Source: Sedimenticola sp. (GTDB taxonomy: Bacteria > Pseudomonadota > Gammaproteobacteria > Chromatiales > Chromatiaceae). From it: a stretch of DNA of 18,597 nt. Shown in pieces: positions 1,562 through 17,722 of the stretch. Within the stretch, counting starts at the first letter, position 1, and each line of letters opens with the position of its first letter. The notes beneath the pieces are model-generated. The model did no database searches. It was given only the letters and a program-made list of their open reading frames with translations, and had not been told where the DNA came from. The stretch is taken from positions 1 through 18,597 of the forward strand of contig JBEVXT010000432.1 of assembly GCA_040505955.1 (NCBI GenBank), in the 5' to 3' direction. A program made the position numbers and the translations under genes.

Positions 1562-2428
1562 TCAATGTACTGTTTGGTCCAATCCCACCTCGAATTTTGT
1601 AAATATAGCTTGGCTCATGACCCTGTTTGACATTTTCGAATTTAAACCCCCTCCCATGCCGTAATAGCGGGTTATCTGACTGTACAACTGCAGAAGCCAG
1701 GATTGAAATTTTGGTATCATGATCATTTTATAGGAATCTACAGCACTTGGTTTCCCATTACTCTTCCAGGCCTTGATCGCGAACTCAACTTCCGGCGTGA
1801 GAAGGGTCATAAAGCGGTTGAACAGAAACGAAGGAACGCGATCATGCTTTTTAAATAATCGCATACCGATTTGTTCCTCAATCCTACTACCTCCGCCACC
1901 CTCCGTGCGCATTCGGCTATCCATAGCTCGGTATATCCACCCGTCATAATCTCTGGTGGTTTCAGACTGCGATATAGAGAGACCAATGGATGGCTCTAAC
2001 CCAACAGTAAGTATTGTTTTGCTCAGTTTCTGCCCCGACCGAAAGGCCCCCAGGGTGTTAAAGGCTACCTTACTTCCCTTATTGAATTTCGCAAGCATCT
2101 TATCGGTCCGGTCAAAGTTCAAGCGGTATACCGCTCTTTTATCCAGACTCCCACAGCCACGATATGTGGCAGACATTTTTACACAATATCCAGCCATTGG
2201 CAGCTCCCCGATGAATAGAGTATGGATTTTGAGGGCGCGCCGGTTACTGACTCTTAATTTAAATTCCTGCATGCATGAAAAGGCAATGCACTTGAGTGCG
2301 GCTTGTTTTGCAAATTCATACGTTTCTGTTTCACTTTCCTTTTGTGCTTTAGCCATATGGCTCAACCAAAAAAACACAACAGAATTTCTCATGGATTGAG
2401 ACCGAATAAAATCATGTATTGAGGACAT
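1562..2428 (-). CDS. Hypothetical protein, 288 aa, no recognisable family; lies in an AT-richer stretch
   Basis: Longest ORF in the region. A strong RBS AAGGAGG sits 4-5 nt upstream of the ATG at 2428. No signal peptide or TM segment is evident. Base composition is visibly lower in GC than the flanking genes. Confidence 0.55.
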   Translation of the reverse strand: MSSIHDFIRSQSMRNSVVFFWLSHMAKAQKESETETYEFAKQAALKCIAFSCMQEFKLRVSNRRALKIHTLFIGELPMAGYCVKMSATYRGCGSLDKRAVYRLNFDRTDKMLAKFNKGSKVAFNTLGAFRSGQKLSKTILTVGLEPSIGLSISQSETTRDYDGWIYRAMDSRMRTEGGGGSRIEEQIGMRLFKKHDRVPSFLFNRFMTLLTPEVEFAIKAWKSNGKPSAVDSYKMIMIPKFQSWLLQLYSQITRYYGMGGGLNSKMSNRVMSQAIFTKFEVGLDQTVH

Positions 2429-2669: not shown

Positions 2670-3058
2670 ATAGAATTACTACCTCCCGATGAAAGCCTAA
2701 GGAAGAAAGGGCAGCGCGGTCGATTGAAGCGAACAAAGGCTCGTAATCTTCTTGAGCGCCTGTGCAACTTTGAGGATGACGTGTTGCGGTTTATGGTAGT
2801 AAAGAAGGCACCCTTTACCAATAATCAAGGTGAGAGAGGCCTGCGAATGACCAAGGTTCATCAGAAGGTGTCTGCTGTTTTCGTTCTATGATGGGTGCAG
2901 AGTATTTCAGTCGAATTCACAGCTATATATCCGCCTGCCGCAAAAATGGGGCATCGTCCACTGAGGCGCTCAGGCTCTTGTTCCAGGGTGAGATGTCTGC
3001 GTTCATCAATCCAGGTACCGGAATAGTTACAATCCGCCCCCATTTTTTCCTCAGTTAA
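2670..3058 (+). pseudogene. Remnant of a DDE transposase gene: only the C-terminal ~125 codons remain, 5'-truncated and split by a frameshift near 2880-2891
   Basis: Frame A (2670-2891) translates to ...ARNLLERLCNFEDDVLRFMVVKKAPFTNNQGERGLRMTKVHQKVSAVFVL*. Frame B (2891-3058) translates to MGAEYFSRIHSYISACRKNGASSTEALRLLFQGEMSAFINPGTGIVTIRPHFFLS*. Joined, they reproduce the conserved C-terminal signature of a transposase family (PFTNNxAERxxRMxKVxQKxSGxFRSxxGAxxFxRIRSYxSTCRKNG...LFxGxxPxFI). This signature is IS66-C-terminus-like or ISL3-like; the exact IS family is uncertain. There is no upstream catalytic part because the opposite-strand gene occupies 1562-2428. Confidence 0.6.
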
Positions 3059-3134
3059 AACCGTTTCAACCGCTCAGTGGTTTCTGGATCGAGGAAACCG
3101 GTAATCGTTGCTTCCGTTTCGCGCCGCAGTGCGG
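3032..3134. repeat. Direct repeat DR1: a ~103-bp copy, ~96% identical, of the 3' end of the enoyl-CoA hydratase gene plus ~20 bp of its downstream sequence
   Basis: 3032-3134 reads atccgcccccattttttcctcagttaaaaccgtttcaaccgctcag...cgcgccgcagtgcgg. It aligns with 13235-13338 with 3 substitutions and 1 indel, and the sequences diverge immediately outside. The repeat ends in the palindrome CCGCAGTGCGG. Confidence 0.85.
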
Positions 3135-3311: not shown

Positions 3312-6300
3312 TCACTCATTATCTTCACCACTTGGCTTTTTTCTCTTCGGCGCATAGCGCTTTGTTTTTACCTGTTCGATACTTTTTAAATCATCACGTA
3401 GTGTTCGAATTTCCGAAAAGATGTCGACCATATTCTGCTGGGTTTTTAGGTCGATTTTCAGTTTACCCTCCATCGAATGAACCAGTGGGTAGATGCTGTG
3501 TTCGAATGTGTCTGCGATAACCGAGAGGATTTTACTGAGCCCAGGCACCGGTTGATTGACCACTTCAATATTGTAATCGACGTTTTGCAGTGCCTCCCTG
3601 ACTCTGCCGATCTCGGCAACCACGCTTTCCCGCCCCTCTTTTTCTGATATATCAGCCACTGGCGAGAGCCGTTGATCCAGAAGTGTGGCAATGGTTTCCA
3701 TGCTTTTTCCCAAATCATAGAGTTGGGATACCACCTTGGCACCACTGTCGGCATCATCACCACCGAGACTTCTGTTTTTCAGAAATGCCTGAAGAATTTC
3801 AGCCCAGCGCTGCCGTTCCTGTTCTGTTTGGTTGCCTCGTAGTTCCGCCAGTTTAAGCAGGTTCTCCTCTGCCCCGGATGTCAGCAGTTGTGCCTCTCCG
3901 AGATAGTGGTCGCTGATCATCTGCATCAGCTCTTGGTTATTCATTACGGCTGATACTTTTTCAGCCATCTTATTCATGTTGCGATAGCTGCCCTGTAGTT
4001 TGAAGGTCGGCTCTGTGCGATATCTGTCATCTTGTGCGGCAGAGGCGATATAGCGTTGATTGACCTTCAGCACAATATCCCGAATCTGGTAGAGCTTTTT
4101 CAGCACTTCGACAATTTCGTTGATCTCCGCGCCACTGTATTGATGTGCCAACTCGGTGCTGGCGATGTTTTTCCCCTTTGCCATCTGCATCAGTTTATAG
4201 ACATCGTCCATCTCTCTGGTGGCAAGTGGTGCCAGTACTCGGTTGGAGGTCAGGCAGTTCTCGATATAGCTGGAGGCAAACTGCGCTTGCATACCGCCCA
4301 GAATGTCACCCAGGTTATAGATATCGGCACGATTTGCCAGCATATCCGGTACCTTGAACACTTCGCCCGATTCGGTATAGGGATTGCCAGCCATGACCAG
4401 ACAGAATTTCCGCCCTCTCATATCGTAGGTTCTTGTTTTGCTTTTCCAAACCCCTTCGATCCTGCGGGTACCATCACCAAGGGAGATGAATTTTTGCAGA
4501 AACTCGGGATTGGTGTGCTGGATATCATCGAGATAGAGCATCACGTTATTACCCATCTCGAAGGCCAGGTTGAGCTTTTTCAACTCCTGTGCTGCAGTGG
4601 CATTCGGTGCCTGGGCAGGATCCAGTGACAATACGCTGTGGCCAAGCGAAGGGCAGTTGATTTTCATAAAAATCAGGCCCAGCCTGCTGGCTACATACTC
4701 CATCAAAGTGGTTTTACCGTAACCGGGTGGCGAGATCATCATCAACAGCCCCATCAGATCGGTGCGCTTGCCTTCACCGATACTCCCCATCTGCTTTGCC
4801 AGATTGTCACCAATCACCGGCAGGTAGGCATCGTTGATCAACCGGTTTCTGACAAAGGAGCTGAGTGGCTTGGCCTTGAACTCTTCGAGATGAAGCCCCT
4901 CCCGCTCTTCGCTGATGATCTGGTGACGGGTTTTTAGATAGCGATGGTAGCCGGGTATTACAACCGCCTGGTGGTGTTGCTGGCGGAGCAAGAAATCATC
5001 CAGCGAAAACTGTAGTGTCTGTTTTTTTATTCTGGAGTGGTCACCCAGCAAGCCAGTTATGGTCAGCTCAATATCGGCTTCTGTGGATCTGCGGTCGATG
5101 CGCTCATCACTATTGATAAGTGCGACTGCTTCTGGAATATAGCCCGCCAGCCTGCTGAGCTGTTTACTCTCCACCAGCGCTTCCAGCCAGGCTTCAGTGA
5201 GTGCCCAGCGCTGTGCCACTCTGCCTTTAAGCTTATCCAGAGATGTCTGGTACTTACGCCATGATGAATCGGTCAAAGCTCGCTTCAGCTCATCGGCCAG
5301 TTCTCTGGCGTAGCGACTGACGATAAATTCGGCTCGCTCTCTACCCAACTCCGCAACCAGGTAACCGGCCGCACGCTGAATATCGAGCGCTGACACCGGA
5401 ATGACATGCGTTTCGAGAAAGAGGGTCAGTGACTGCTCCACTTCCGCCACCAGCAGTTGAATCGCCTTCGACTGACTGAGTTCGTGACGCATCTGATAGG
5501 CTGACTGAGCACGCTCGGGCCAGCTCTTGTGGGTGAAGTTAAATGTTGCACTTTGAGTCGATCCGGGCTGCAGGTTGGCCCAGAATATCTGAGCCAAACC
5601 CCGACTGAGCGGATCATAGCGCAGCAGGTCACCCCGCTCCAGGGCAGGCAACAGCTGTTTTAAAATAAGTGCGGCATCATGATCATGCACCCCCTTCTCA
5701 TATCCTTCCTTGTAACGGGGAGAGGAGAACTCCCTTGCCAGCTTCAACAGCCCGCTCTCATCACTCAATAGCCCGGTCAGACGCTCTGTGGTGAGGTTAC
5801 TCTCCTGCCTTTCTGCTGCCTCGATGATCAGATTGGCCAGATACTCACCCCGATAGAGCTGAGGGCTCTCGGATTCCAGCGGCATCTCCCAATATTGCCG
5901 TAGCGCCATCAGTTGACTGTTTTCGATCGGCTCGAAAAACTCGGTTCCGGTCAGGTGCAGGTTCAACTCCCCATCACGAGGAATGATGGTCAGGTCTAAC
6001 TCCTGGGTGTTAACACTGAAGCGATGGCGTGGCCCCAACCTGATGACTTGACCACCCGCCTCGTAGATCTCGGACTTATCCCTCAGTGAGCGAAGTGCCT
6101 GTTCTTTGATCGATTTAAAGCGCGCTTCGACATCATCCGCCTTTACCCGGCTGTCCAGTTCACCCAGGCGCTCTACCAACTCCCGCACCTTGATCACCAG
6201 GGCATCCGATGCAAAGTAGGTATTCAACTCATCCGCTTCGGTAAACTTTAGTGAGCGTCGTTCAATATTACTGAGGATACGGGATGCGGCATCGGCCACA

Positions 6301-8627
6301 GACTGTGCCTTACGCTGTCGCTCATCCAGCAGTTGTTGTTTGTGCGTTTCAAAGGATTCATAGAGCTCTTCCCGCTTTGCCATAATATCGGCAAGGAACT
6401 CGTCATGATCACTGAATTGGCTCTCCAGCTCTTCGAGTTGCACCAGCAGACGTGACAGTTGCTCATCACAACGCTCTGGGGTGGTGGCCATTCCGAGGGC
6501 GTTGGAGATACTTTGGGAGAAGAGTTTAAACTGTGCGCTGAACTGGGCTACCGCCTCTTCTGAACCAAGACTTTTCTGTTTATGCCTAGCACTGGCTTTG
6601 CTTTGATTGAGCTGAGAGTAGATTCCCGATATGGCGTCAATAATGCGCGTTCTAACGGTAGCATCCTGCACTTTGAGGGTGGTCATCAACTCAGACAACA
6701 GGTCAAGTCCCGATGCTGTGGATTCAATCACTTCAATCAGGGGCGTCAACAGGGCGATGGTATCCGCCTTTTTCACCTCTCTGTTCAGATTGTCTATCTT
6801 ATCCTGATAGGGCGACAACGCATCCTCTGAAGCCAGAAAGGTGATGGTTCTCCCGCTCAGACTTTCCTGACGCTTTATTAGCTCCTGATCCAACACATCT
6901 ATACGCTGAAGGTCGATATAGCGATGCTCACGAATCGTAGTCAGATGCCCTCTTTGATGACGAAGGCTATCCAGGGCCCGCACATAATCCTCTGCTGTAT
7001 GCCAGCTATCAGGCTGGATACTACGCAGGATCTCCTGCTGCTTTGCCTCCGCCTCTGCCATGCTCTTTTTTGATTGTCGGCGGATACTTTCAACTTTCTC
7101 AAACTCATCGATCACCAGCTCTGCCGTCGTTGCAATTTCATGCACGATAGTGGCTATCTCATCGACCTCTTCATCCTCAATCCAGTAGTGGTCGTCAAAC
7201 AGGCCCTGGGAGGATTTATTGAGATCTTCGTAGTGGCGTACCGATACCTCCTGATTCTCGATAATTCGACTGATGCTGAAGAGGCTGGATATACCCCGCA
7301 CCAGTTCGGCATTGCCGATGCGCCCCATAAAGCTCTGGCTGGCAGGCGTCTGACTGGCAAACTCCTGGCTTGTATAGGGGGTACTCCATACCTGCATGGG
7401 ATGGATGCGGGTCGGCTCACTTTCCGCAGAGAAGATAATGATGGTGCCATCCTCAGCCAAGGCATAACCGTGCCCAAGTATGGGTGTTTTCAACGCCTTG
7501 TTAATCAGGTTATAACCGAACAGTGCGACCTCACCGGCCTCGCGCTCATAGAATATGTAGAGCACATCTTCACCGTTGGGAGAGCGGACAACCCGTTTGA
7601 TGGTATATCCGGACAGGCCATCATCAAAGGTTTTGTATTCACCATTTTGCAGATAGTAACCACCGGGAAATGCAATGCCGTGATCTTCAGGCAGTTGCAC
7701 ACAGGAGTCACCGATCGCATCTATGCGGATAACACTTTGGGTCTGGGTGTTGAATACCAGATAGCGCCAGTTCTCTTCTCGATAGGGACGTATCTTCAGA
7801 AGAATAAGGGAGCCGATCTCTGCGTAGTGGATAGCCGCGTCGTCCAGAGACTGGGTCTTGTCTTCCACCGGTTCCCGGTAGATACCCAAACCATCCTTTG
7901 TGTTGTTCTCAACCTTGATCGTTAGATCTCCGGTGACGGTTTCAACAAATACTTTATCGAGGATGGAAACGTGGGGATGCGGACCATTGACAATATCTTC
8001 ACGGGTGGTTTCACTCCACTCAAAGTCGTGGGCAGGAGGCAGTTGAATATCTCGTTCACCACGATTATCCATGTAGGTAACTTCGCTGCCATCTGCGGAA
8101 ACAGACCAACGGAATACACGCAGATCATCCAAACGCTCGCCGATCTGAAAACCCGCCAGTAGCTTCCCCTGTTTGACTGTAAGTTCTACCAGACGCGTGT
8201 GTTTGTAGTAGCGATAGAGTTCTTCAAAATCTGTTCTGAAGTTTGCCTGATCCAAAAAGCTACCCGTGATGGAGGCCGCCTCGATCTCATAACCTGCCTT
8301 ACCACCATTAACATGAAACAGGGAAAATACATCGCTTATCCTGGTCTCCTTTTTCAGACCGATAAAAACGTTGTAGCCAAATAGCAGATACGTACCCACC
8401 TGAACAATGTCCCGGGCAACACTGTTGTTCTCGGTGCGAACACGAATACGTGCAGCCAGTTCCATGCCGGAACTTCCGAACTCACTCAGGCGGCTATCAT
8501 TAAGACGGGTGGTCGCTTGACTCAAGCGATTGCCCTGGTTCAGCAGCCGCTTACGAATCACCTCGTAAGCACCGCCTTCTGCAACCGCACTGTTAACAAT
8601 GCCGGTGGTATCTTCCTGCTGTACCAT
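3312..8627 (-). CDS. Giant 1771-aa protein with a beta-rich N-terminal domain (~aa 1-480), a long coiled-coil/helical region (~aa 500-1150), a single MoxR/AAA_5-type AAA+ ATPase module (~aa 1280-1480) and a helical C-terminal region
   Basis: Uninterrupted 5.3-kb ORF. An RBS AAGGA lies 9 nt upstream of the ATG at 8627. Walker A PPGYGKTTL is at nt 4704-4730 and Walker B MLYLDDIQH at nt 4517-4540. The downstream segment CLVMAGNPYTESGEVFKVPDMLANRADIYNLGDIL matches the MoxR/AAA_5 pattern (xATxNP...LPxALxxRF). The central region is rich in E/L/R/Q heptad-like sequence. The gene is transcribed in the same direction as the flotillin gene and separated from it by 214 nt. Confidence 0.85.
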   Translation of the reverse strand: MVQQEDTTGIVNSAVAEGGAYEVIRKRLLNQGNRLSQATTRLNDSRLSEFGSSGMELAARIRVRTENNSVARDIVQVGTYLLFGYNVFIGLKKETRISDVFSLFHVNGGKAGYEIEAASITGSFLDQANFRTDFEELYRYYKHTRLVELTVKQGKLLAGFQIGERLDDLRVFRWSVSADGSEVTYMDNRGERDIQLPPAHDFEWSETTREDIVNGPHPHVSILDKVFVETVTGDLTIKVENNTKDGLGIYREPVEDKTQSLDDAAIHYAEIGSLILLKIRPYREENWRYLVFNTQTQSVIRIDAIGDSCVQLPEDHGIAFPGGYYLQNGEYKTFDDGLSGYTIKRVVRSPNGEDVLYIFYEREAGEVALFGYNLINKALKTPILGHGYALAEDGTIIIFSAESEPTRIHPMQVWSTPYTSQEFASQTPASQSFMGRIGNAELVRGISSLFSISRIIENQEVSVRHYEDLNKSSQGLFDDHYWIEDEEVDEIATIVHEIATTAELVIDEFEKVESIRRQSKKSMAEAEAKQQEILRSIQPDSWHTAEDYVRALDSLRHQRGHLTTIREHRYIDLQRIDVLDQELIKRQESLSGRTITFLASEDALSPYQDKIDNLNREVKKADTIALLTPLIEVIESTASGLDLLSELMTTLKVQDATVRTRIIDAISGIYSQLNQSKASARHKQKSLGSEEAVAQFSAQFKLFSQSISNALGMATTPERCDEQLSRLLVQLEELESQFSDHDEFLADIMAKREELYESFETHKQQLLDERQRKAQSVADAASRILSNIERRSLKFTEADELNTYFASDALVIKVRELVERLGELDSRVKADDVEARFKSIKEQALRSLRDKSEIYEAGGQVIRLGPRHRFSVNTQELDLTIIPRDGELNLHLTGTEFFEPIENSQLMALRQYWEMPLESESPQLYRGEYLANLIIEAAERQESNLTTERLTGLLSDESGLLKLAREFSSPRYKEGYEKGVHDHDAALILKQLLPALERGDLLRYDPLSRGLAQIFWANLQPGSTQSATFNFTHKSWPERAQSAYQMRHELSQSKAIQLLVAEVEQSLTLFLETHVIPVSALDIQRAAGYLVAELGRERAEFIVSRYARELADELKRALTDSSWRKYQTSLDKLKGRVAQRWALTEAWLEALVESKQLSRLAGYIPEAVALINSDERIDRRSTEADIELTITGLLGDHSRIKKQTLQFSLDDFLLRQQHHQAVVIPGYHRYLKTRHQIISEEREGLHLEEFKAKPLSSFVRNRLINDAYLPVIGDNLAKQMGSIGEGKRTDLMGLLMMISPPGYGKTTLMEYVASRLGLIFMKINCPSLGHSVLSLDPAQAPNATAAQELKKLNLAFEMGNNVMLYLDDIQHTNPEFLQKFISLGDGTRRIEGVWKSKTRTYDMRGRKFCLVMAGNPYTESGEVFKVPDMLANRADIYNLGDILGGMQAQFASSYIENCLTSNRVLAPLATREMDDVYKLMQMAKGKNIASTELAHQYSGAEINEIVEVLKKLYQIRDIVLKVNQRYIASAAQDDRYRTEPTFKLQGSYRNMNKMAEKVSAVMNNQELMQMISDHYLGEAQLLTSGAEENLLKLAELRGNQTEQERQRWAEILQAFLKNRSLGGDDADSGAKVVSQLYDLGKSMETIATLLDQRLSPVADISEKEGRESVVAEIGRVREALQNVDYNIEVVNQPVPGLSKILSVIADTFEHSIYPLVHSMEGKLKIDLKTQQNMVDIFSEIRTLRDDLKSIEQVKTKRYAPKRKKPSGEDNE
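4180..4800 (-). other. AAA+ ATPase module of the giant protein (Walker A GYGKTT, Walker B LDD, sensor/NP motif)
   Basis: The motifs were read directly from the translation. It is a single AAA module, not a tandem pair. The NP(x)ESG / ANRADI arrangement indicates the MoxR/dynein-like AAA_5 clade rather than the classical Vps4/FtsH clade. Confidence 0.7.
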
Positions 8628-8733
8628 TATTTGATCCTTATTTAATCACCAAGGTAGCTACTTATCGATGTACTGAATAGTGGGTGTCTTTCTGAAAACA
8701 GGTAGCCTTACACCCCGTACGATGGTGCTGCAA

Positions 8734-8760
8734 CACAGATCACGGCAGTGGTGATCTGTG
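8734..8760. promoter_or_regulatory. Perfect 10-bp stem / 7-nt loop hairpin (CACAGATCAC-ggcagtg-GTGATCTGTG) in the flotillin-to-AAA+ spacer; no U-tract, so not a classical terminator
   Basis: Exact inverted repeat read from the sequence. It lies ~80 nt downstream of the flotillin stop and ~105 nt upstream of the giant gene start. It is a candidate RNA processing/stability element or protein-binding site. Confidence 0.5.
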
Positions 8761-8794
8761 TTACCTCTGGTAAAAATACCCTCTTGACGGGGTA

Positions 8795-8817
8795 TTGAAT
8801 AGTTACAAACTATTCAA
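8795..8817. promoter_or_regulatory. 23-bp AT-rich perfect palindrome TTGAATAGTT-ACA-AACTATTCAA, 25 nt downstream of the flotillin stop; candidate dimeric-regulator site
   Basis: Exact palindrome. Its half-site GAATAGTT(AC) is the same motif that recurs at 1315-1328, 3019-3032, 10821-10834, 10932-10944 and 8672-8685. Confidence 0.5.
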
Positions 8818-8841
8818 TATGTATAAAGAGCGAGACGCTCT

Positions 8842-10785
8842 TCACTCGCGATTAGCGCTCTCTTTGTCACTACGACTATCGATAAGCTTTTCCAGCAAGG
8901 CGGTAACCAGGCCACTCTTGCTACTGAAACCATCGACGGCCTTTCCCAGCGAGAGTGATTTGGCAAAGGTATCGAAGAAGTGTCCTTCACCGCCCACGAT
9001 GTCAATATTGGCGGCTTTAAGTGCATTGGAAAGTACCCCGGCATTCTCTCTGGCAACCTCTTTACCTGCATCAATGGAAGCAACCGCCTCTTTGAATGCG
9101 GTCTCCAGACCCATACGGAACTCTTCATGGTCACGGGCCTTGTCGCTCATGCTATCCATGGCTTCAAACTTATCCACCAGGCCCTCGGCCTCGGCCTTGA
9201 ACTGCTCGCGTGTAACATCCGCCTCAGCCATACCGATCTTCTTCACCGCATTTGCTTCGGCGCTGCCTTTTGCGTCGATAACACTGGCCTCTGCCCCACC
9301 CTGTGCTCCGGTGACTTTCGCTTCCGACTCACCTTTGGCATCGATTACGCGGGCTTCAGCCAGCCCCTCTTTCTCCAGCGCATCGGCCTTTGCCTCCTGT
9401 ACCTTGGCTTCCGCAAGACCTGGTGCTGCCACCTCGGCCTGTACACCCTCAGCCAGTTTCTTCTTACCATCCGCCTCCTTGGCAACCGCCTCAAGTTCTG
9501 CCTGAGCGATGGTGGTAATCTCATTGGCGCGGTGTTTTGCGGAAAGTTCTTCCGCTTCAGCCGCTTTCACCAGTTTCACCTTCTCTTCATCTGCCTGGGC
9601 TTCCGCCCCAAGCACCTGTACCTGCTTGGCACGATCTGCCTCTGATACCTCACGCACCTCTTTGATGCGCTCCTCCTCGATGGCAACTGTTTTATCGACT
9701 ACCACCCGCTCTCGAATCACATTGGCAATCTCTTTCTTCTCCAGTTCGATCGCCTTCTCAGCTTCAATACTCTGCAACTCAACTTCACGTTCACGGGAGA
9801 CGATCTCCAGATCCTTGGCCCGGGTTACTTTCTCCACTTCGATCACAACTGCACGCTGGCGGTTCTGCTCCGCCACCTCAATCTCACGCTGCTGATTCTC
9901 CTTCTGAACCGCTAAATCCTGATCAGTAGAAATGGTGGCCGATTCAGATTTCTTTCGCTCCTCCTCCTGAATGCGGATGGTCTCCGCCTCTTCCCTTGCT
10001 TGTATGCTTGCCACCTCTCTTGCCTGCTTCGCCTCCGCATCTGATTGCTGGCGCTCCAGCTCAAGCATCGATTCAATGGTTTCGACATTCTTCTTCTTGA
10101 TCGCTAACTCTTCATCCCGCTCAAGTATATTGGTGTGTATATTTTGAGCAGCTGTCAGGGCTGTGATTTTTTTGATACCTTCGGCATCGAGGATATTGTT
10201 TGGATCAAGGGATGATTTCGGCGTCTGTTCAAGATAGTCAATTGCGACATCCTCAAGCACATAGCCGTTCAGATCATCACCGATCACTTCAATGATTTTC
10301 TCTCGGAATTCCAGACGATTTTCAAACAGCTGTACAAACTCTATCTGCTTACCAACAGTTTTCAATGCTTCTGAAAATTTGGCATTGAACAACTGCTCTA
10401 CCGACCCCTTGTCAGATGCCCTGTCGGCACCCAGAGACTTAGCCACCTTGAGCACATCTTCTGCGGTCTCATTCACTCTGAGATAGAATGCAACGGTAAT
10501 GTCTGCACGCATATTATCTGCACATATCAGCCCATCTTTTCCCCGGCGATCAACCTCAAGGGTAATCAGGGAGACCCGCATCAACTCCTTCTTATAGATA
10601 ATCGGGTAGACCAACGCACCGGTAAAGTGCACCTTTGGCTTGGCGCTCATGTCATTCACGATCAGGGCCGTACCCTGATCAACCTTGATATAGAATGCCT
10701 TGAACAGTATCGCCAACCCCATCAGGATTGCGAAAAATATTCCAGCACCAGTAGCTATCGGCATAAGTACAGATAAATCAGCCAT
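8842..10785 (-). CDS. yqiK: Flotillin-like SPFH/band-7 protein (YqiK family), 647 aa, with an N-terminal TM helix and a long A/E/K-rich C-terminal repeat region
   Basis: N-terminal membrane anchor IATGAGIFFAILMGLAILF. SPFH-core-like segment (...MRADITVAFYLRVNE...). Extended EA-repeat coiled coil, with tandem units AEARVIDAKGESEAKV / AEASVIDAKGSAEANA at nt ~9250-9360. RBS GGAG lies 8 nt upstream of the ATG. The gene order NfeD then flotillin matches the yqiJK pair. Confidence 0.85.
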   Translation of the reverse strand: MADLSVLMPIATGAGIFFAILMGLAILFKAFYIKVDQGTALIVNDMSAKPKVHFTGALVYPIIYKKELMRVSLITLEVDRRGKDGLICADNMRADITVAFYLRVNETAEDVLKVAKSLGADRASDKGSVEQLFNAKFSEALKTVGKQIEFVQLFENRLEFREKIIEVIGDDLNGYVLEDVAIDYLEQTPKSSLDPNNILDAEGIKKITALTAAQNIHTNILERDEELAIKKKNVETIESMLELERQQSDAEAKQAREVASIQAREEAETIRIQEEERKKSESATISTDQDLAVQKENQQREIEVAEQNRQRAVVIEVEKVTRAKDLEIVSREREVELQSIEAEKAIELEKKEIANVIRERVVVDKTVAIEEERIKEVREVSEADRAKQVQVLGAEAQADEEKVKLVKAAEAEELSAKHRANEITTIAQAELEAVAKEADGKKKLAEGVQAEVAAPGLAEAKVQEAKADALEKEGLAEARVIDAKGESEAKVTGAQGGAEASVIDAKGSAEANAVKKIGMAEADVTREQFKAEAEGLVDKFEAMDSMSDKARDHEEFRMGLETAFKEAVASIDAGKEVARENAGVLSNALKAANIDIVGGEGHFFDTFAKSLSLGKAVDGFSSKSGLVTALLEKLIDSRSDKESANRE

Positions 10786-10965
10786 AACAGTTTCTCCATT
10801 TCCTTTTAGTTAACTATTTTGGTAACTATTCAGCGGATGTGAAGTATAGTTCGGGATCGGAGTCGATTGCGGCAAGAAACTACAAATTCCCCTACCATCT
10901 TCAACCCAATCAACTCCGACCCCGTACCCAACTGATATAGTTACGCTCGAATTATTGTAAATACA

Positions 10966-11658
10966 CTATATTCCAGAAAACTCTTTTTCTGAAATGACGT
11001 GGTAGATATTTTCATTCTCCAGGTACTCAATGAGCACAACACTATCACCTCTTTTGAATACCTGTTCTCCGATAGTCCGCACCTTCAATATCAACCCCGC
11101 ACCACCATCTTCCAGCGTCGCTTCTCCAAAGTGATGATCAACTCTTGAGGTTCGAACAACCGCAATCTGCCCCAATACAATTTTTTCTGTATGCTGCTGC
11201 GCCTTGTTGAACAGCTGACGCAAGGGTCTTATAACAACGGCTGTAATCATGGTCGCAACAAACAGTGAGGCGATGAATATTGGAATACCTGCCAGGTACT
11301 TCAGTACTCCCTCTGGAAAAAATCCCAGAAGAAAATAGACCAGGTAGTAACAGAGAAGCCATCCAAACAGTGATATAAACGAGACAGTGATGGTGACAGG
11401 AACACCATGAAGTCCAAATTTCATCATCAGCCCGGCTAATGCATCAGGCGTGGGTATCTCACTATCCGCATTGAGACCAGTAGGGCCGTCGAAATCAGGA
11501 AGGTCAATATCAAGGATATCGATATCCACCAGTCCCAATACGGCCACTAACCAGTAGAGCGCAACCAGCGCCAAAAAAAAGGTGAAAATGGCTGTTGGGA
11601 AGGATGAAATATTCTGATAAAACGGATCCATCCCTTCATTTAGGAATATCGCAAACAT
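10966..11658 (-). CDS. yqiJ: NfeD-like membrane protein (YqiJ / DUF1449-like): N-terminal multi-TM region plus C-terminal OB-fold-like domain
   Basis: Hydrophobic helices (FTFFLALVALYWLVAVLGLV, VSFISLFGWLLCYYLVYFLLGFF, IFIASLFVATMITAVVI). A C-terminal beta-rich tail (IVLGQIAVVRTSRVDHHFGEATL...GDSVVLIEYLENENIYHV) is typical of short NfeD partners of SPFH proteins. RBS GAGG lies 5 nt upstream of the ATG. The gene sits immediately upstream of the flotillin gene. Confidence 0.7.
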   Translation of the reverse strand: MFAIFLNEGMDPFYQNISSFPTAIFTFFLALVALYWLVAVLGLVDIDILDIDLPDFDGPTGLNADSEIPTPDALAGLMMKFGLHGVPVTITVSFISLFGWLLCYYLVYFLLGFFPEGVLKYLAGIPIFIASLFVATMITAVVIRPLRQLFNKAQQHTEKIVLGQIAVVRTSRVDHHFGEATLEDGGAGLILKVRTIGEQVFKRGDSVVLIEYLENENIYHVISEKEFSGI

Positions 11659-11706
11659 GCTTACCTCACAACTGATGCTTAAGAAATGCTAGCTGGCTAT
11701 TCGATA

Positions 11707-12396
11707 TTACCTGTTTTTTCGCTTCAGGCGCGCAAGAATATCATCCGCACTGCTGCTTTTGGCCGTGATACCCGCCTCTTCGAGTTTCGTCTGAAGCGTT
11801 GACTCAGAGCTCTCTTCTGCCAACTCAGCAGCGGCTGTCATCTGCGCACCTTTTAACGCCTGCTTCTCCTTAATGCGCTCAAGGGAATCCATCGCTGTAC
11901 GCAGTTTGGTATTGGAGCCACTATGGCGCTCAGCAACTGCCTGCTGTGCACGCTGTACACTCTCAGTAGCCTTGACCGTATCAACCTGCTGCTTGAGTCG
12001 TTTAATATTGCCCTCTGCCTGCTGTATTGCCAGGCGCAACATTATTGAACTCTGGGCATAGCCGATCCCGGACTCAGTCTCCAGCTGCAGCTGATTCTCT
12101 ATATGGGCTATTTTTTCAGCAACCTCTTGAGCAAGATTTTCGTCACCTTTATCGAGAGCCTTAAGCGCATACTCCTCGTACTCTTTGACCTGACTTTTCA
12201 GTTTACTGCCCTTCTCTTCAGAGAGTTTCTGGTGCGCCATGATGGCAGCCAGGCCATTCCTGGACTGCTTGAGTTCTTCGGAGGCGTCGCGCACCTCCTG
12301 ATCCAGAATTCGAAGTGCCTGACTGTCAATGATCGCTTCACCCGCCTCATTTGCGCCGCCACGGAGTGCGGTCAACATTTTTGCCCAAACATTCAT
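11707..12396 (-). CDS. PspA/IM30/Vipp1-family protein (YjfJ-like; ESCRT-III superfamily), 229 aa
   Basis: The translation MNVWAKMLTALRGGANEAGEAIIDSQALRILDQEVRDASEELKQSRNGLAAIMA... shows the characteristic PspA N-terminal amphipathic helix followed by a long coiled coil and a basic C-terminus (ILARLKRKNR). The start was set at the second in-frame ATG (12396; 1-nt gap after the upstream stop) on homology to PspA N-termini. The alternative ATG at 12417 would overlap the upstream gene by 20 nt. Confidence 0.8.
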   Translation of the reverse strand: MNVWAKMLTALRGGANEAGEAIIDSQALRILDQEVRDASEELKQSRNGLAAIMAHQKLSEEKGSKLKSQVKEYEEYALKALDKGDENLAQEVAEKIAHIENQLQLETESGIGYAQSSIMLRLAIQQAEGNIKRLKQQVDTVKATESVQRAQQAVAERHSGSNTKLRTAMDSLERIKEKQALKGAQMTAAAELAEESSESTLQTKLEEAGITAKSSSADDILARLKRKNR

Positions 12397-12397
12397 T

Positions 12398-13036
12398 TCA
12401 GATTGCCCCTTTAGCATCGACCTGGATATTCAAGTACTCACTGTAAGCTTCGGTCGCCTGAATTACATTGCTGGCCAGCACCTCTATCTCGAAAACAACG
12501 CTGGTAAGAATAGAGCTCGAACTCAGTGCGCCAAACATATGGTAGTAATCATCATCTCCCGACATGCTGTCCAAGCTCACCGAGGAGAGTGGAAAGTACT
12601 TATGGGTTCGAAGTAGGGTTTCATTAAATGCAGACGGGTCTTTTACATCTGAAATCGCCCACAACACCACTTCTGCAATAATCTGTTCGCCGGAAACCGT
12701 CAGGAAGATCGGTAGATCACCGTACTCATGCATGACAATATGCAGCGAAGACTCAATCCCTTCGATCAATTCAAGTGAAGCCTGTCCAGTGGTAAATAAC
12801 TCCACATTCTGCAGTGCTTCGTAGAGAGTAGTAGTGGTCCATTCCGGTGATTTCATGGTCATCATTTCTTCTCCTGGTGACGTAGTAGAGAGATCGGCCT
12901 TTCGTAAATGTTTTTCCAGCGCTGCCAGTCGTTTGGCATTTTCAGGCCGTATCCAGATCTCTTTTTTAACCAACCCCTGCTCACGCAGCTTTCTTCTATA
13001 TTCTCGTTGGTAATACGCTGAAGTTTTCTTGCTCAT
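12398..13036 (-). CDS. First gene of the operon: YjfI-like (DUF2170-like) protein with an extra ~55-aa highly basic N-terminal extension
   Basis: The position immediately upstream of a YjfJ-type PspA gene mirrors E. coli yjfI-yjfJ. The C-terminal ~150 aa (from MMTMKSPEWTTTTLYEALQN...) is compatible with DUF2170 size. The N-terminus MSKKTSAYYQREYRRKLREQGLVKKEIWIRPENAKRLAALEKHLRKAD is Lys/Arg-rich and looks like a small DNA-binding (RHH/Arc-like) module. The DUF2170 assignment is from context and memory, not alignment. Confidence 0.45.
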   Translation of the reverse strand: MSKKTSAYYQREYRRKLREQGLVKKEIWIRPENAKRLAALEKHLRKADLSTTSPGEEMMTMKSPEWTTTTLYEALQNVELFTTGQASLELIEGIESSLHIVMHEYGDLPIFLTVSGEQIIAEVVLWAISDVKDPSAFNETLLRTHKYFPLSSVSLDSMSGDDDYYHMFGALSSSSILTSVVFEIEVLASNVIQATEAYSEYLNIQVDAKGAI

Positions 13037-13043
13037 AATCCGT

Positions 13044-13072
13044 ATTATAGAATATTACATGTAAGCTGTCAA
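13044..13072 (-). promoter_or_regulatory. Consensus sigma70 promoter for the yjfI-like to AAA+ operon: -35 TTGACA (13067-13072), 17-bp spacer, -10 TATAAT (13044-13049)
   Basis: The minus-strand reading is tttTTGACAgcttacatgtaatattcTATAATacggattATG. Both hexamers are perfect consensus with optimal spacing. The -10 ends only 7 nt before the ATG at 13036, which implies a leaderless or near-leaderless transcript. Confidence 0.65.
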
Positions 13073-13087
13073 AAACTTACATGTAAT
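13054..13087. promoter_or_regulatory. Operator-like twin palindromes: two copies of TTACATGTAA, centre-to-centre 22 bp, one overlapping the -35 flank and one inside the promoter spacer
   Basis: ATTACATGTAAG-ctgtcaaaaa-CTTACATGTAAT is a 12-bp inverted repeat. Each half contains the self-complementary decamer TTACATGTAA. No other copy occurs in the window. Confidence 0.6.
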
Positions 13088-13234: not shown

Positions 13235-13338
13235 ATCCGCCCCGATTTTTTTCCTCAGTTAAAACCGTTTCAATCGCTCAGTGGTTTCTGGATCGAGGAA
13301 ACCGGTAATCGTTGCTTCCGTTTCGCACCGCAGTGCGG
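13235..13338. repeat. Direct repeat DR2: the partner of DR1, forming the authentic 3' end (last ~26 codons) and downstream flank of the enoyl-CoA hydratase gene
   Basis: Aligned with 3032-3134 as described for DR1. The 10.1 kb between the repeats holds the PspA/flotillin/AAA+ operon. Confidence 0.85.
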
Positions 13339-15372: not shown

Positions 15373-15744
15373 TTAAACCCTGAACCTCATATAGTTGGCA
15401 ATCTCATAGGCATCCGGCTTCCCCTCTTCATAACCGAAAAAGCAGATATCCTGTGCCGACCCCTTGCTTGAAGCGGCGATTCCAACAACAAATTCACACT
15501 TGTGTTCGGTGGCTTGACTATAGAGAAACTGCAGGGCTTTCTTTAGATCGGAGCGTCTCTTTGCCTCCAGATTGATTCCCAGATTCCAGAAGGATTCACC
15601 CGCTTCATCTTCACCAGGCTGGTGGCGATCATTAACCAGGGTGGCACTGCCGTCACTCTTTTTCACCCAACCGGCAATCGCCTCACTCATGGGCTCGGCA
15701 ATCGCTTCGAGGTCATCTGATTCAGCATAGATGTAAACTTTCAT
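15373..15744 (-). CDS. Small acidic hypothetical protein (~124 aa) between dctM and the ligase gene
   Basis: ORF with an AGGAG upstream of the ATG at 15744 (MKVYIYAESDD...). The longer track ORF (to 15792) would overlap dctM. No family was recognised. Confidence 0.5.
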   Translation of the reverse strand: MKVYIYAESDDLEAIAEPMSEAIAGWVKKSDGSATLVNDRHQPGEDEAGESFWNLGINLEAKRRSDLKKALQFLYSQATEHKCEFVVGIAASSKGSAQDICFFGYEEGKPDAYEIANYMRFRV

Positions 15745-15752
15745 GGGGCGGT

Positions 15753-17033
15753 TCAGCTCCTGCCCGGCAGCCATAGAGAGAGCGCGGGCCAATAGGTGAT
15801 AATAAGTACGGCAACAAGCAGAATCAGGAACCAGGGCAAGGTGGCCCGGTAGAGCTGCATCACCGGCTTGTTGAAGCGGTAGCTGGCAATAAAGAGGTTC
15901 ATCCCCACCGGCGGGGTGAAGTAGCCGATCTGCATGTTGGCGAGGAAGATGATACCGAAATGTACCGGGTCTACGCCATAGCCAATGGCGATGGGCAGCA
16001 GCAGGGGCAGCATTAAGACCAGGGCGGAGAAGATATCCAGCAGGGTGCCGAGCACCAGCAGAAAGAGGTTGAGCAGGATCAGAAAGGTGAGCTTGCTGCT
16101 GACCATCTCCTGCAGTGTCTCAAACAGGCGGGCGGGCACTTCCGCATCAATCAGGTAGTTGGTGGATGCCAGTGAGAGACCGAGAATGACCAGTATGCCG
16201 CCAACCATGATCATCGACTCCCGCATCACCTTTGGCAGTTGTCTGAAACCGATCTCACGTTTGATCAACACCTCGACGATAAAGAGATAGATCACGGTGA
16301 CCGCCGCTGCCTCGGAGATGGCGAAGAAGCCGCTGTAGATCCCCCCCAGCACCAGCAGGGGCAGCGGGATCTCCCACCCTGCCTCTTTAGCCGCAGCCAG
16401 CGCCTCAGCACTATTGAAGGGTATAGCTTCCTGGCCGCGACTGTTGTAGATGCTCCAGAGGGAGAGCAGCGCCAGCATCAGCAGTCCCGGCAGTATGCCG
16501 GCAAGGAACATGGCATTGACGGTAATGTTGCCGCCTGTTCCCAGTTGCTGTGCAATCACCGCATAGAGGATCAGCGGCAGCGCCGGGGCAAAGAGCAGGC
16601 CAAGACTGCCCGAGGTAGTGACCAGGCCGAGGCCGAAGTTCTCCTTGTAGCCGGACTGAGTGAGTGCAGGATAGAGCAGCGCACCCAGGGCGACGATGGT
16701 GACACCGGATGCACCGGTAAAGGCGGTAAAGAGCGCACAGGCGATCAGCGATACTATGGCCAGACCACCCGGCATCCAGCCGAGCAGTGCGTGGGTGAGA
16801 CGCACCAGGCGCTGGGGCGCGCTGCTCTCGCCCAGCAGATAGCCGGCAAAGGTGAAGAGCGGAATAGCCAGCAGGATCGGCATCTCGGCAATGCGAAAGA
16901 ACTCGATGGCGACAACCGAGAGATCCACTTCCGAGCGATAGAAACCGAGCATGGCACTGGCGGCGATAATGGTAAACAGCGGCGCACCCAGCAGCGCCAA
17001 CAGCAACAGTAGAAGGCCGATAAGGATCATCAT
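15753..17033 (-). CDS. dctM: TRAP transporter large permease subunit (DctM family), 426 aa
   Basis: Polytopic membrane protein with typical DctM composition. Its start overlaps the dctQ stop (ATGA). Confidence 0.85.
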   Translation of the reverse strand: MMILIGLLLLLLALLGAPLFTIIAASAMLGFYRSEVDLSVVAIEFFRIAEMPILLAIPLFTFAGYLLGESSAPQRLVRLTHALLGWMPGGLAIVSLIACALFTAFTGASGVTIVALGALLYPALTQSGYKENFGLGLVTTSGSLGLLFAPALPLILYAVIAQQLGTGGNITVNAMFLAGILPGLLMLALLSLWSIYNSRGQEAIPFNSAEALAAAKEAGWEIPLPLLVLGGIYSGFFAISEAAAVTVIYLFIVEVLIKREIGFRQLPKVMRESMIMVGGILVILGLSLASTNYLIDAEVPARLFETLQEMVSSKLTFLILLNLFLLVLGTLLDIFSALVLMLPLLLPIAIGYGVDPVHFGIIFLANMQIGYFTPPVGMNLFIASYRFNKPVMQLYRATLPWFLILLVAVLIITYWPALSLWLPGRS

Positions 17034-17516: not shown

Positions 17517-17722
17517 GTAACTTCTCAATAAGTTCGTGCACCGGGCCCTGCCAACTGAGAAGGCCCACCTGACTGTAGGAGCGAACTTGTTCGCGATTAG
17601 CTTCGTAGAACACTCTTCGCGAACAAGTTCGCTCCTACGCTAAAAGTTTCGTAATCCCTCAATAATCCTGTGTAGTGGAACAACTCATACACCCCTATGG
17701 CACGGGCTTATTGAGAAGTTAC
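17517..17722. repeat. 206-bp MITE-like intergenic element: perfect 16-bp terminal inverted repeats GTAACTTCTCAATAAG / CTTATTGAGAAGTTAC enclosing REP copy 2, with a degenerate internal direct copy of the terminal repeat
   Basis: 17517-17532 is the exact reverse complement of 17707-17722. Similarity extends a further ~7 bp inward (CGTGC). 17651-17668 (gtaatccctcaataatcc) is a third, degenerate copy. The element fills the dctP-dctQ spacer. Confidence 0.65.
17575..17638. repeat. REP-like extragenic palindrome, copy 2 (same 22-bp arms as 1350-1413; the 20-nt loop differs but shares TTCGTAG)
   Basis: Arms 17575-17596 and 17617-17638 are exact reverse complements and identical to the arms of copy 1. 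Confidence 0.85.

Follow-up and report, generated by a model that had tools for sequence, protein, structure and literature searches.

The stretch of DNA analysed here, called the window, is an 18,597-nt contig (JBEVXT010000432.1) from a Sedimenticola metagenome-assembled genome (MAG), and this report deals with an operon of five genes on its minus strand, the last of which codes for a giant ATPase of 1771 amino acids (aa). When the window was read for open reading frames (ORFs), five co-directional minus-strand ORFs, referred to as genes A to E, were found in the order A-B-C-D-E from 13036 to 3312. The promoter, the genes and one structured spacer are as follows.

13072-13044, minus strand: sigma-70-type promoter, with TTGACA at 13072-13067, a 17-nt spacer and TATAAT at 13049-13044; 12/12 consensus match
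13036-12398, minus strand: gene A, YjfI/DUF2170 (CesT-like) protein and BacA equivalog, 212 aa; Pfam and NCBIfam
12417 or 12396 to 11707, minus strand: gene B, YjfJ-type PspA/IM30 protein of 236 aa (229 aa if started at Met8); Pfam
11658-10966, minus strand: gene C, short NfeD/YqiJ-like membrane protein, 230 aa; likely start Met10 at 11631
10785-8842, minus strand: gene D, YqiK-type flotillin, 647 aa; profile-profile match
8841-8628, minus strand: structured D-E spacer, 214 nt; RNA folding
8627-3312, minus strand: gene E, giant ATPase with DUF3686, DUF7902 and an AAA+ module, 1771 aa

An earlier annotation of the window, referred to as the original prediction, had placed five co-directional genes behind one consensus promoter, and the ORF coordinates together with the complete match to TTGACA-17-TATAAT confirm this; by our own arithmetic such a match is expected by chance about 0.004 times per 12 kb. 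On the minus strand the intergenic sequences are free of terminator-like sites. Direct reading of the sequence shows that 7 nt separate the -10 hexamer from the ATG of gene A, and because of this the operon mRNA is probably leaderless, with transcription predicted to begin on or beside the A of that ATG (13036). The D-E spacer holds several stem-loops, one with a 14-bp stem, and its folding energy is -64.3 kcal/mol (z = -4.35), which none of the shuffled sequences equalled (0/200); a search of the window, this spacer included, found no Rfam family. The spacer might attenuate or stabilise the transcript. It had also been stated that the classical Psp partners, namely pspBC, pspF and a sigma-54 promoter, are lacking, and this holds: no PspB, PspC or PspF is encoded among the window proteins and a search upstream of the operon for the sigma-54 consensus (TGGCAC-N5-TTGC) gave no match.

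The families assigned earlier to the five genes proved to be accurate, by Pfam and NCBIfam for genes A, B and E and by profile comparison for genes C and D. Gene A matches DUF2170 with an E value of 1e-51 (174.6 bits, cutoff 27) and the NCBIfam equivalog 'biofilm formation regulator BacA' with 313.4 bits (cutoff 300); E. coli YjfI can be aligned to its residues 66-201 with an identity of 35%, and the solved BacA structure (PDB 8q8o, 146 aa) is matched with E 1.7e-44 by residues 65-204 only. Gene B matches PspA_IM30 over profile positions 1-217 of 220 (E 9e-47, 159.9 bits, cutoff 33.9), and this near full-length match places the 229-aa protein in the PspA/IM30 family. Its identity is 36% with E. 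coli YjfJ (E 4e-34) and 25% with E. coli PspA (E 0.014), and by these comparisons it is closer to YjfJ than to PspA itself. The alignment with YjfJ starts at residue Met8, whose codon at 12396 lies 1 nt past the gene A stop, and Met8 is the likely start of gene B, giving 229 aa.

Gene C gave only a sub-cutoff match to YqiJ_N (E 0.8) and no NfeD match when compared with Pfam at E<=10, none of 20 gene C homologues (0/20) matched the NfeD and YqiJ Pfam models, BLASTP of gene C against E. coli YqiJ was not significant, and an iterative search seeded with E. coli YqiJ among the ORFs of the census described below recovered only itself. The profile of 20 diverse gene C homologues was aligned by hhalign to E. 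coli YqiJ with a probability of 93.9% (E 1.5e-7), and this alignment spans the hydrophobic stretches and the C-terminal domain. Judging from the homologue alignment, gene C has a conserved domain at its C-terminus, an acidic loop and three hydrophobic stretches that we read as transmembrane helices. Gene D did not match Pfam at E<=10, Band_7 included, and Band_7 was matched in one of 20 diverse gene D homologues (E 1.2e-7), while sequence and profile searches of PDB sequences with gene D gave no match. The profile of gene D was aligned to E. coli YqiK with a probability of 99.8% (E 1e-29; 33% identity over 399 columns, including the SPFH core), a search seeded with YqiK recovered the same 78 ORFs as the search with gene D, and gene D homologues are named flotillin or YqiK in their source records. 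The layout of gene D is an N-terminal hydrophobic segment, the SPFH core and a long Ala/Glu-rich helical region.

The giant ATPase

The domains and motifs of gene E, all on the minus strand, are as follows.

7185-8525: DUF3686 domain, residues 35-481 (Pfam E 2e-201)
6570-6824: DUF7902, residues 602-686 (Pfam, above cutoff)
3948-4856: AAA+ module, residues ~1258-1560, with AAA/AAA_5 matches near residues 1295-1418
4707-4733: Walker A SPPGYGKTT, residues 1299-1307
4524-4529: Walker B LYLDD, D1367 and D1368
Residues 1412-1419: sensor-1 region MAGNPYTE
Residue R1433: conserved Arg

The AAA+ module scores above the cutoffs for Pfam AAA (31.1 bits, cutoff 21.2) and AAA_5 (23.9 bits, cutoff 22), and Walker A, MAGNPYTE and R1433 are invariant in 23 gene E homologues that are 32-53% identical. 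In searches of PDB sequences with gene E profiles the matches were confined to the Walker A region. Residues 1201-1771 were modelled with 28 homologues at a predicted local distance difference test score (pLDDT) of 79.8, with the AAA core above 90, and when this model was compared with the PDB by Foldseek, NorQ and CbbQ ranked first (E ~1e-7), the closest structural neighbours being MoxR, midasin or dynein modules. The model has a beta-hairpin before the sensor-1 strand, and the sensor-1 motif is NP. The original prediction had called the ATPase MoxR/AAA_5-type rather than Vps4-type, and both the AAA_5 match and the Foldseek ranking support it. A Vps4-type protein would be a classic-clade AAA with an N-terminal MIT domain and an obligate linkage to an ESCRT-III gene; none of these was found for gene E, in which Pfam detects no MIT domain. 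Its likeness to the MoxR ATPases CbbQ, NorQ and RavA lies in the closest fold, the NP sensor-1 and the AAA_5 match, and it differs from them in being about 6 times larger, in its fused parts, which are the DUF3686 domain and ~700 aa of helical region, in its Walker B DD and in having no VWA gene in the operon. Client complexes are the usual targets of MoxR ATPases, which work on them together with VWA partners. The family to which gene E belongs falls into more than 5,100 clusters when 90% identity is applied, and its N-terminal 700 aa alone gave 916 representatives at 50% identity. Its database names are 'DNA repair ATPase' (NCBI) and 'ATPase involved in DNA repair' (Pfam), and our literature search for DUF3686 found no paper mentioning DUF3686.

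The operon is a member of a published class and the linkage itself is no discovery. Ravi et al. 2024 (mSystems, PMC11237479), in their passages on this class, describe operons of a CesT/Tir-PspA pair, a Band-7/flotillin, an AAA+ protein with a coiled coil and a beta-propeller, and YqiJ/YuaF; they take the DUF3686 region for beta-propeller repeats, report that abbreviated operons of flotillin and YqiJ, with or without the AAA+ gene, that lack PspA are more widespread, and suggest ATP-dependent membrane remodelling. These are the same five families as in the window operon. The study is in silico only and, in those passages, gives no counts of ATPase-flotillin against ATPase-PspA pairs. The same genes are also known as bacABCDEF of P. 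aeruginosa (PA3732-PA3727 / PA14_16140-16200), the 'biofilm-associated cluster' (PMC2587700, PMC10948618), so that the novelty proposed for the linkage does not stand. Gene order and families A to E in the bac cluster are as in the window, and gene A passes the BacA equivalog cutoff; the window operon differs in having no sixth, PLD-like gene (bacF) and in its host, a Sedimenticola MAG. Six Pseudomonas loci (L007, L009, L012, L013, L018 and L036) have the order A-B-C-D-E, and the PLD-like gene comes next in all but L018.

In PA14 all junctions of the bac operon were linked by reverse transcription PCR (Wallart et al. 2024, PMC10948618), and from this and the gene layout co-transcription of the five genes would be expected in the Sedimenticola MAG as well. 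It has been shown that BacB-F accumulate 6-13-fold in the bacA mutant (PMC10948618), that bacA and bacB mutants have biofilm, rhamnolipid, swarming and virulence phenotypes (Macé et al. 2008, PMC2587700; PMC10948618) and that PA3731 (BacB) is induced by osmotic shock (PMC2587700). The P. aeruginosa counterparts of genes D and C are PaFlo3 and PA14_16160, a short NfeD, which form an operon (PMC13086221, 2026). PA3728, described as an ATPase, has been reported among the genes with recurrent mutations in cystic fibrosis isolates. E. coli has homologues of C and D in yqiJK and of A and B in yjfIJ, but these are at separate loci, neither with a gene for the giant ATPase, and YjfI is without the N-terminal module that gene A carries.

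The ATPase gene and its neighbours in other genomes

The original prediction made the giant ATPase a dedicated remodeller of the PspA polymer, and this leads to the question with which genes the ATPase gene is conserved. A census was made of 81 ATPase loci with ±10 kb of context; it took the best 80 of at least 584 relatives, with one genome per species, and also took in the window locus and its closest metagenomic relative. The lineages were Gamma-, Beta- and Zetaproteobacteria, Myxococcota, Nocardiopsis, one Clostridia MAG and one Acidobacteriota MAG. ORFs were classed with iterated hidden Markov models seeded from the window proteins, and the denominators were set by the upstream sequence at hand, which had to be at least 2.5 kb for the flotillin, 3.5 kb for the NfeD-like protein and 6 kb for the A-B pair. 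The flotillin gene (D) was directly upstream of the ATPase gene and co-directional with it in 75/75 loci, and the NfeD-like gene (C) was present directly upstream of the flotillin gene in 71/72. The YjfI and PspA pair (A-B) was found in 39/71 loci, A and B always together, and every locus that has the pair is from Gamma- or Betaproteobacteria. It is missing from all sampled loci of Myxococcota, Actinomycetota (Nocardiopsis) and the Clostridia MAG, and also from those of Stenotrophomonas, Xenorhabdus, Luteimonas and one Zetaproteobacteria MAG; a search of the census loci for further YjfJ/PspA-like ORFs at E<=10 found none. The pair runs divergently in four loci; Marinobacter and one Cellvibrionaceae genome show this orientation. 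Intergenic gaps were short or overlapping, as in Stenotrophomonas where both C-D and E and the next gene overlap (-4 nt). Thus, the predicted co-conservation stands for the SPFH and NfeD-like genes, but for PspA it is found in only 39/71 loci.

Since the proportions are 75/75 and 71/72 for the flotillin and NfeD-like genes against 39/71 for the A-B pair, the ATPase is above all a partner of flotillin and NfeD, to which PspA is an addition found in proteobacteria. The core module is the C-D-E triad, in which a giant soluble ATPase stands beside a YqiK-type flotillin and an NfeD/YqiJ-like protein. Some Gamma- and Betaproteobacteria, this Sedimenticola MAG among them, also have the YjfI-YjfJ add-on of a CesT-like chaperone and a PspA/ESCRT-III-family protein. 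In order of dependence, the C-D-E core comes first, the optional A-B pair second and a variable sixth gene last.

These numbers weaken the earlier idea that the ATPase is dedicated to PspA polymers, a non-homologous analogue of Vps4 for which flotillin and NfeD would be a mere recruiting platform. The shared operon here and in 39/71 loci does fit that idea, as does the co-induction of the PspA and ATPase genes in P. aeruginosa. With ESCRT-III-Vps4 and archaeal CdvB-CdvC the operon has in common that a gene of the ESCRT-III superfamily lies beside an AAA+ ATPase gene. ATP-dependent remodelling was raised for PspA-AAA+ pairs in the passages of Ravi et al. on the class (PMC11237479), and a 2025 review (PMC7619361) finds bacteria without a Vps4-like ATPase partner for PspA, so that the niche is open. 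Yet no YjfJ/PspA gene is nearby in 32/71 loci, among them all those sampled from Myxococcota, Actinomycetota and Clostridia, whereas the flotillin gene is never missing from ATPase loci; moreover, the pair is divergent in Marinobacter and the Cellvibrionaceae genome, the E. coli yjfIJ locus has no ATPase gene, and gene E lacks the MIT domain. We rank this explanation third and regard it as improbable. The B. subtilis pspA-ydjGHI (samGHI) operon is similar in that it combines genes for PspA and an SPFH protein, the latter of which reportedly recruits PspA to the membrane, but it has no AAA+ ATPase and no DUF2170 protein and its accessory proteins are others. Whether conservation of the C-terminal tail of gene E tracks the presence of PspA was also considered from homologue match ranges and dropped, as the pattern was partial and confounded by phylogeny.

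The gene after the ATPase gene varies by lineage and may code for a PLD-like protein (Pseudomonas bacF), a rhomboid, a peptidase M50B, TelA, an MscK-like channel or a zinc-ribbon protein; none of these is present in the window operon. Those sixth genes that Pfam identified are mostly for membrane-associated proteins, and this argues against the 'DNA repair' label of the ATPase. That the 1771-aa protein is a DNA-repair ATPase with membrane genes as incidental neighbours finds support in the database names only, and we give it next to no credence when the ATPase gene is invariably linked to flotillin and NfeD genes in four phyla and no DNA-binding or nuclease domain was detected in gene E by Pfam and NCBIfam.

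The sixth genes bear also on the main rival, in which the ATPase extracts, matures or quality-controls membrane clients held in the flotillin microdomain and does not act on the scaffold. Rhomboid and M50B intramembrane proteases and the PLD-like enzyme are often downstream of the ATPase gene, and the nearest folds of gene E are those of the MoxR maturation chaperones. The SPFH scaffold HflK/C is functionally coupled to the AAA+ machine FtsH, which SPFH cages are known to house, and this is the best precedent for an SPFH-AAA+ pair. FtsH, however, is a membrane-anchored classic-clade AAA protease, whereas gene E is MoxR-type by fold, has no protease match and, on reading its sequence by eye, has no obvious transmembrane segment. 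Pfam finds neither a VWA domain nor a protease among the five operon proteins, the sixth gene is too variable to point to a conserved client, and the long helical region would seem more like a scaffold-binding element than a substrate pore adaptor. This explanation is in our opinion unlikely.

Our preferred explanation is that the locus is a bac-type envelope-stress operon of nested modules in which the ATPase remodels the flotillin/NfeD scaffold, and we put the probability of this whole reading at roughly 55%. Flotillin and NfeD would assemble an oligomeric scaffold at the cytoplasmic face of the inner membrane. The ATPase would form a ring through its AAA+ module, contact the scaffold through the DUF3686 domain and helical arms, and spend ATP on building up, turning over or taking apart the coiled-coil scaffold, and PspA polymers, where present, could be recruited to the same patch and be a further substrate. 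Remodelling of scaffolds, that is of flotillin and, where present, of PspA polymers, would be the most likely activity of the ATPase because its partner is invariant, the candidate substrates are both long coiled-coil oligomers, and it has a long helical region and DUF3686. The bolder claim that the ATPase is an ATP-driven remodeller of flotillin scaffolds and, with YjfI-YjfJ, of PspA/ESCRT-III-like polymers is in our opinion less likely than not. If it is true, this ATPase would be the missing energy source for turnover of bacterial membrane scaffolds, analogous to Vps4 or to FtsH in HflK/C but from a different AAA+ clade. The census redirects experiments from PspA to the SPFH scaffold, and it concerns an ATPase family of more than 5,000 clusters at 90% identity in several phyla whose 'DNA repair' name is unsupported by gene context.

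Several points weigh against this explanation. Co-occurrence alone does not show the substrate of the ATPase or physical contact, and a PspA gene could lie elsewhere in a genome, as the census saw only ±10 kb. The Walker B motif is DD and not the canonical hhhhDE, and it is invariant in the 23 homologues; because of this ATP hydrolysis and catalytic competence are assumed only, and the catalytic mechanism may be atypical. MoxR ATPases usually work with VWA partners, none of which is among the five genes, and the ATPase may act on clients rather than on the scaffold. The AlphaFold2 model of gene D made with 20 close homologues was unusable (pLDDT 50.6, SPFH region below 40), and we infer the cytoplasmic topology of genes C and D from their sequences. 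With regard to the regulation of the operon, which is described below, the P. aeruginosa papers propose a sigma-54 promoter for the bac operon (PMC10948618), and assigning DNA binding to the N-terminal module of gene A rests on a sub-threshold MazE-like match and the operator pattern.

Palindromes at the promoter and the N-terminal module of gene A

Two further features were found at the upstream end of the operon.

13077-13086 and 13055-13064: two copies of the palindrome TTACATGTAA, 22 bp apart, one just upstream of the -35 element and one in the spacer
13036-12860, minus strand: N-terminal module of gene A, ~60 aa, with KSSAHYQRxFRQRLREQGLVKKEVWILPE conserved in the long form

The two copies of TTACATGTAA are its only matches in the window, where 0.09 were expected. 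A-type proteins come in two forms, a short one of ~134 aa (YjfI-like) and a long one of ~205-225 aa, and the module is missing from E. coli YjfI and from the BacA structure 8q8o. Upstream of 25 long-form A genes, from Pseudomonas to Comamonas and picked by motif search, there are two or three palindromes with an ACATGT core, of the type TYACATGTRA, ~22 bp apart and bracketing a -35-like element which is followed by a -10-like hexamer, and a spacing of ~7 nt from this hexamer to the ATG is common to the 25 loci. Counting 120 nt for each of the 25 long-form genes, the upstream sequence has 50 palindrome sites in all, as against 5 in 607 kb elsewhere. The module itself has a weak, sub-cutoff match to MazE-like (E 0.008-0.024) and may bind DNA. 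The TTACATGTAA pair is a candidate operator for the gene A product, and the layout suggests direct autorepression.

The proteome of the bacA mutant would be accounted for if the gene A product directly repressed its own leaderless sigma-70 promoter. The gene A product would be bifunctional: its N-terminal module would bind the paired TTACATGTAA operators overlapping the promoter and repress the operon, and its CesT-like domain would bind the PspA-like protein, so that expression of the operon would be coupled to the amount of PspA engaged at the membrane, like in E. coli PspA-PspF. The crystallised P. aeruginosa BacA construct lacked the N-terminal module because 8q8o matches residues 65-204 only, and the text of Wallart et al. 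(PMC10948618) makes no mention of a DNA-binding domain or a palindrome in the context of BacA. Unlike the sigma-54 promoter proposed in the P. aeruginosa papers, the window promoter is a perfect sigma-70 consensus without a sigma-54 match, and the P. aeruginosa assignment may need re-examination. In the passages of Ravi et al. on the class (PMC11237479) neither the operator nor the leaderless promoter is described, nor is the module at the N-terminus of the DUF2170 protein, and as far as could be found the observation is new. Together the operator pair, leaderless promoter and module give a testable account of the reported negative control by BacA.

Genomic setting and other features of the window

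The other genes of the window code for a glucose/sorbosone dehydrogenase, an enoyl-CoA hydratase, an AMP-binding enzyme and a TRAP transporter. The features that bracket the operon are as follows.

13247-13338: direct repeat copy 1, comprising the enoyl-CoA hydratase 3' end and a further 12 nt
3043-3134: direct repeat copy 2, an orphan hydratase 3' end, 177 nt past the ATPase stop and abutting the IS66 remnant
2724-2891, extending to ~3042, plus strand: IS66-family transposase fragment (DDE_Tnp_IS66 positions 226-275 of 284, E 4e-7)

The direct repeat is 92 nt long at 98% identity, with ~20 further nt similar, and there is no recombinase between its copies. The minus-strand sequence just past copy 2 begins with GTAA, which we take to be the typical start of IS66 ends. 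None of 80 related loci shares the window flanks, and relatives of the hydratase (~80% identity) keep the AMP-binding/hydratase pair without a bac operon downstream; no clean empty site was found. Because the repeat brackets the operon and one copy is the hydratase 3' end, the operon of ~10 kb, promoter included, appears to be a lineage-specific insertion, on a contig from a MAG where the repeat junctions could be an assembly artefact.

A cassette between direct repeats beside an IS66 remnant is a setting that would suit an anti-phage or abortive-infection system with membrane components as its effectors, and in P. aeruginosa PA3728-PA3732 were co-induced by phage and up in all infected samples (PMC12041424). 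Such induction equally fits a generic envelope-stress response, 0/5 operon proteins match PADLOC, and the C-D-E triad occupies stable chromosomal positions in many genera. We judge a defence role to be very improbable. PspA was itself first discovered through a phage-induced envelope-stress response.

Three more features were noted in the window outside the operon.

1562-2428, minus strand: 288-aa ORF of low GC content (~0.44), beyond the IS66 remnant
15373-15792, minus strand: 139-aa ORF between the TRAP transporter DctM and AMP-binding enzyme genes, its start overlapping the DctM end
1348-1414 and 17574-17640: two copies of a 67-nt element

The 288-aa ORF has no Pfam, NCBIfam or PADLOC match and no homologue in the fetched loci, and the 139-aa ORF has no Pfam match. 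Each copy of the 67-nt element contains a perfect 22-bp inverted repeat, GTAGGAGCGAACTTGTTCGCGA, and in this the elements resemble REP-type extragenic palindromes.

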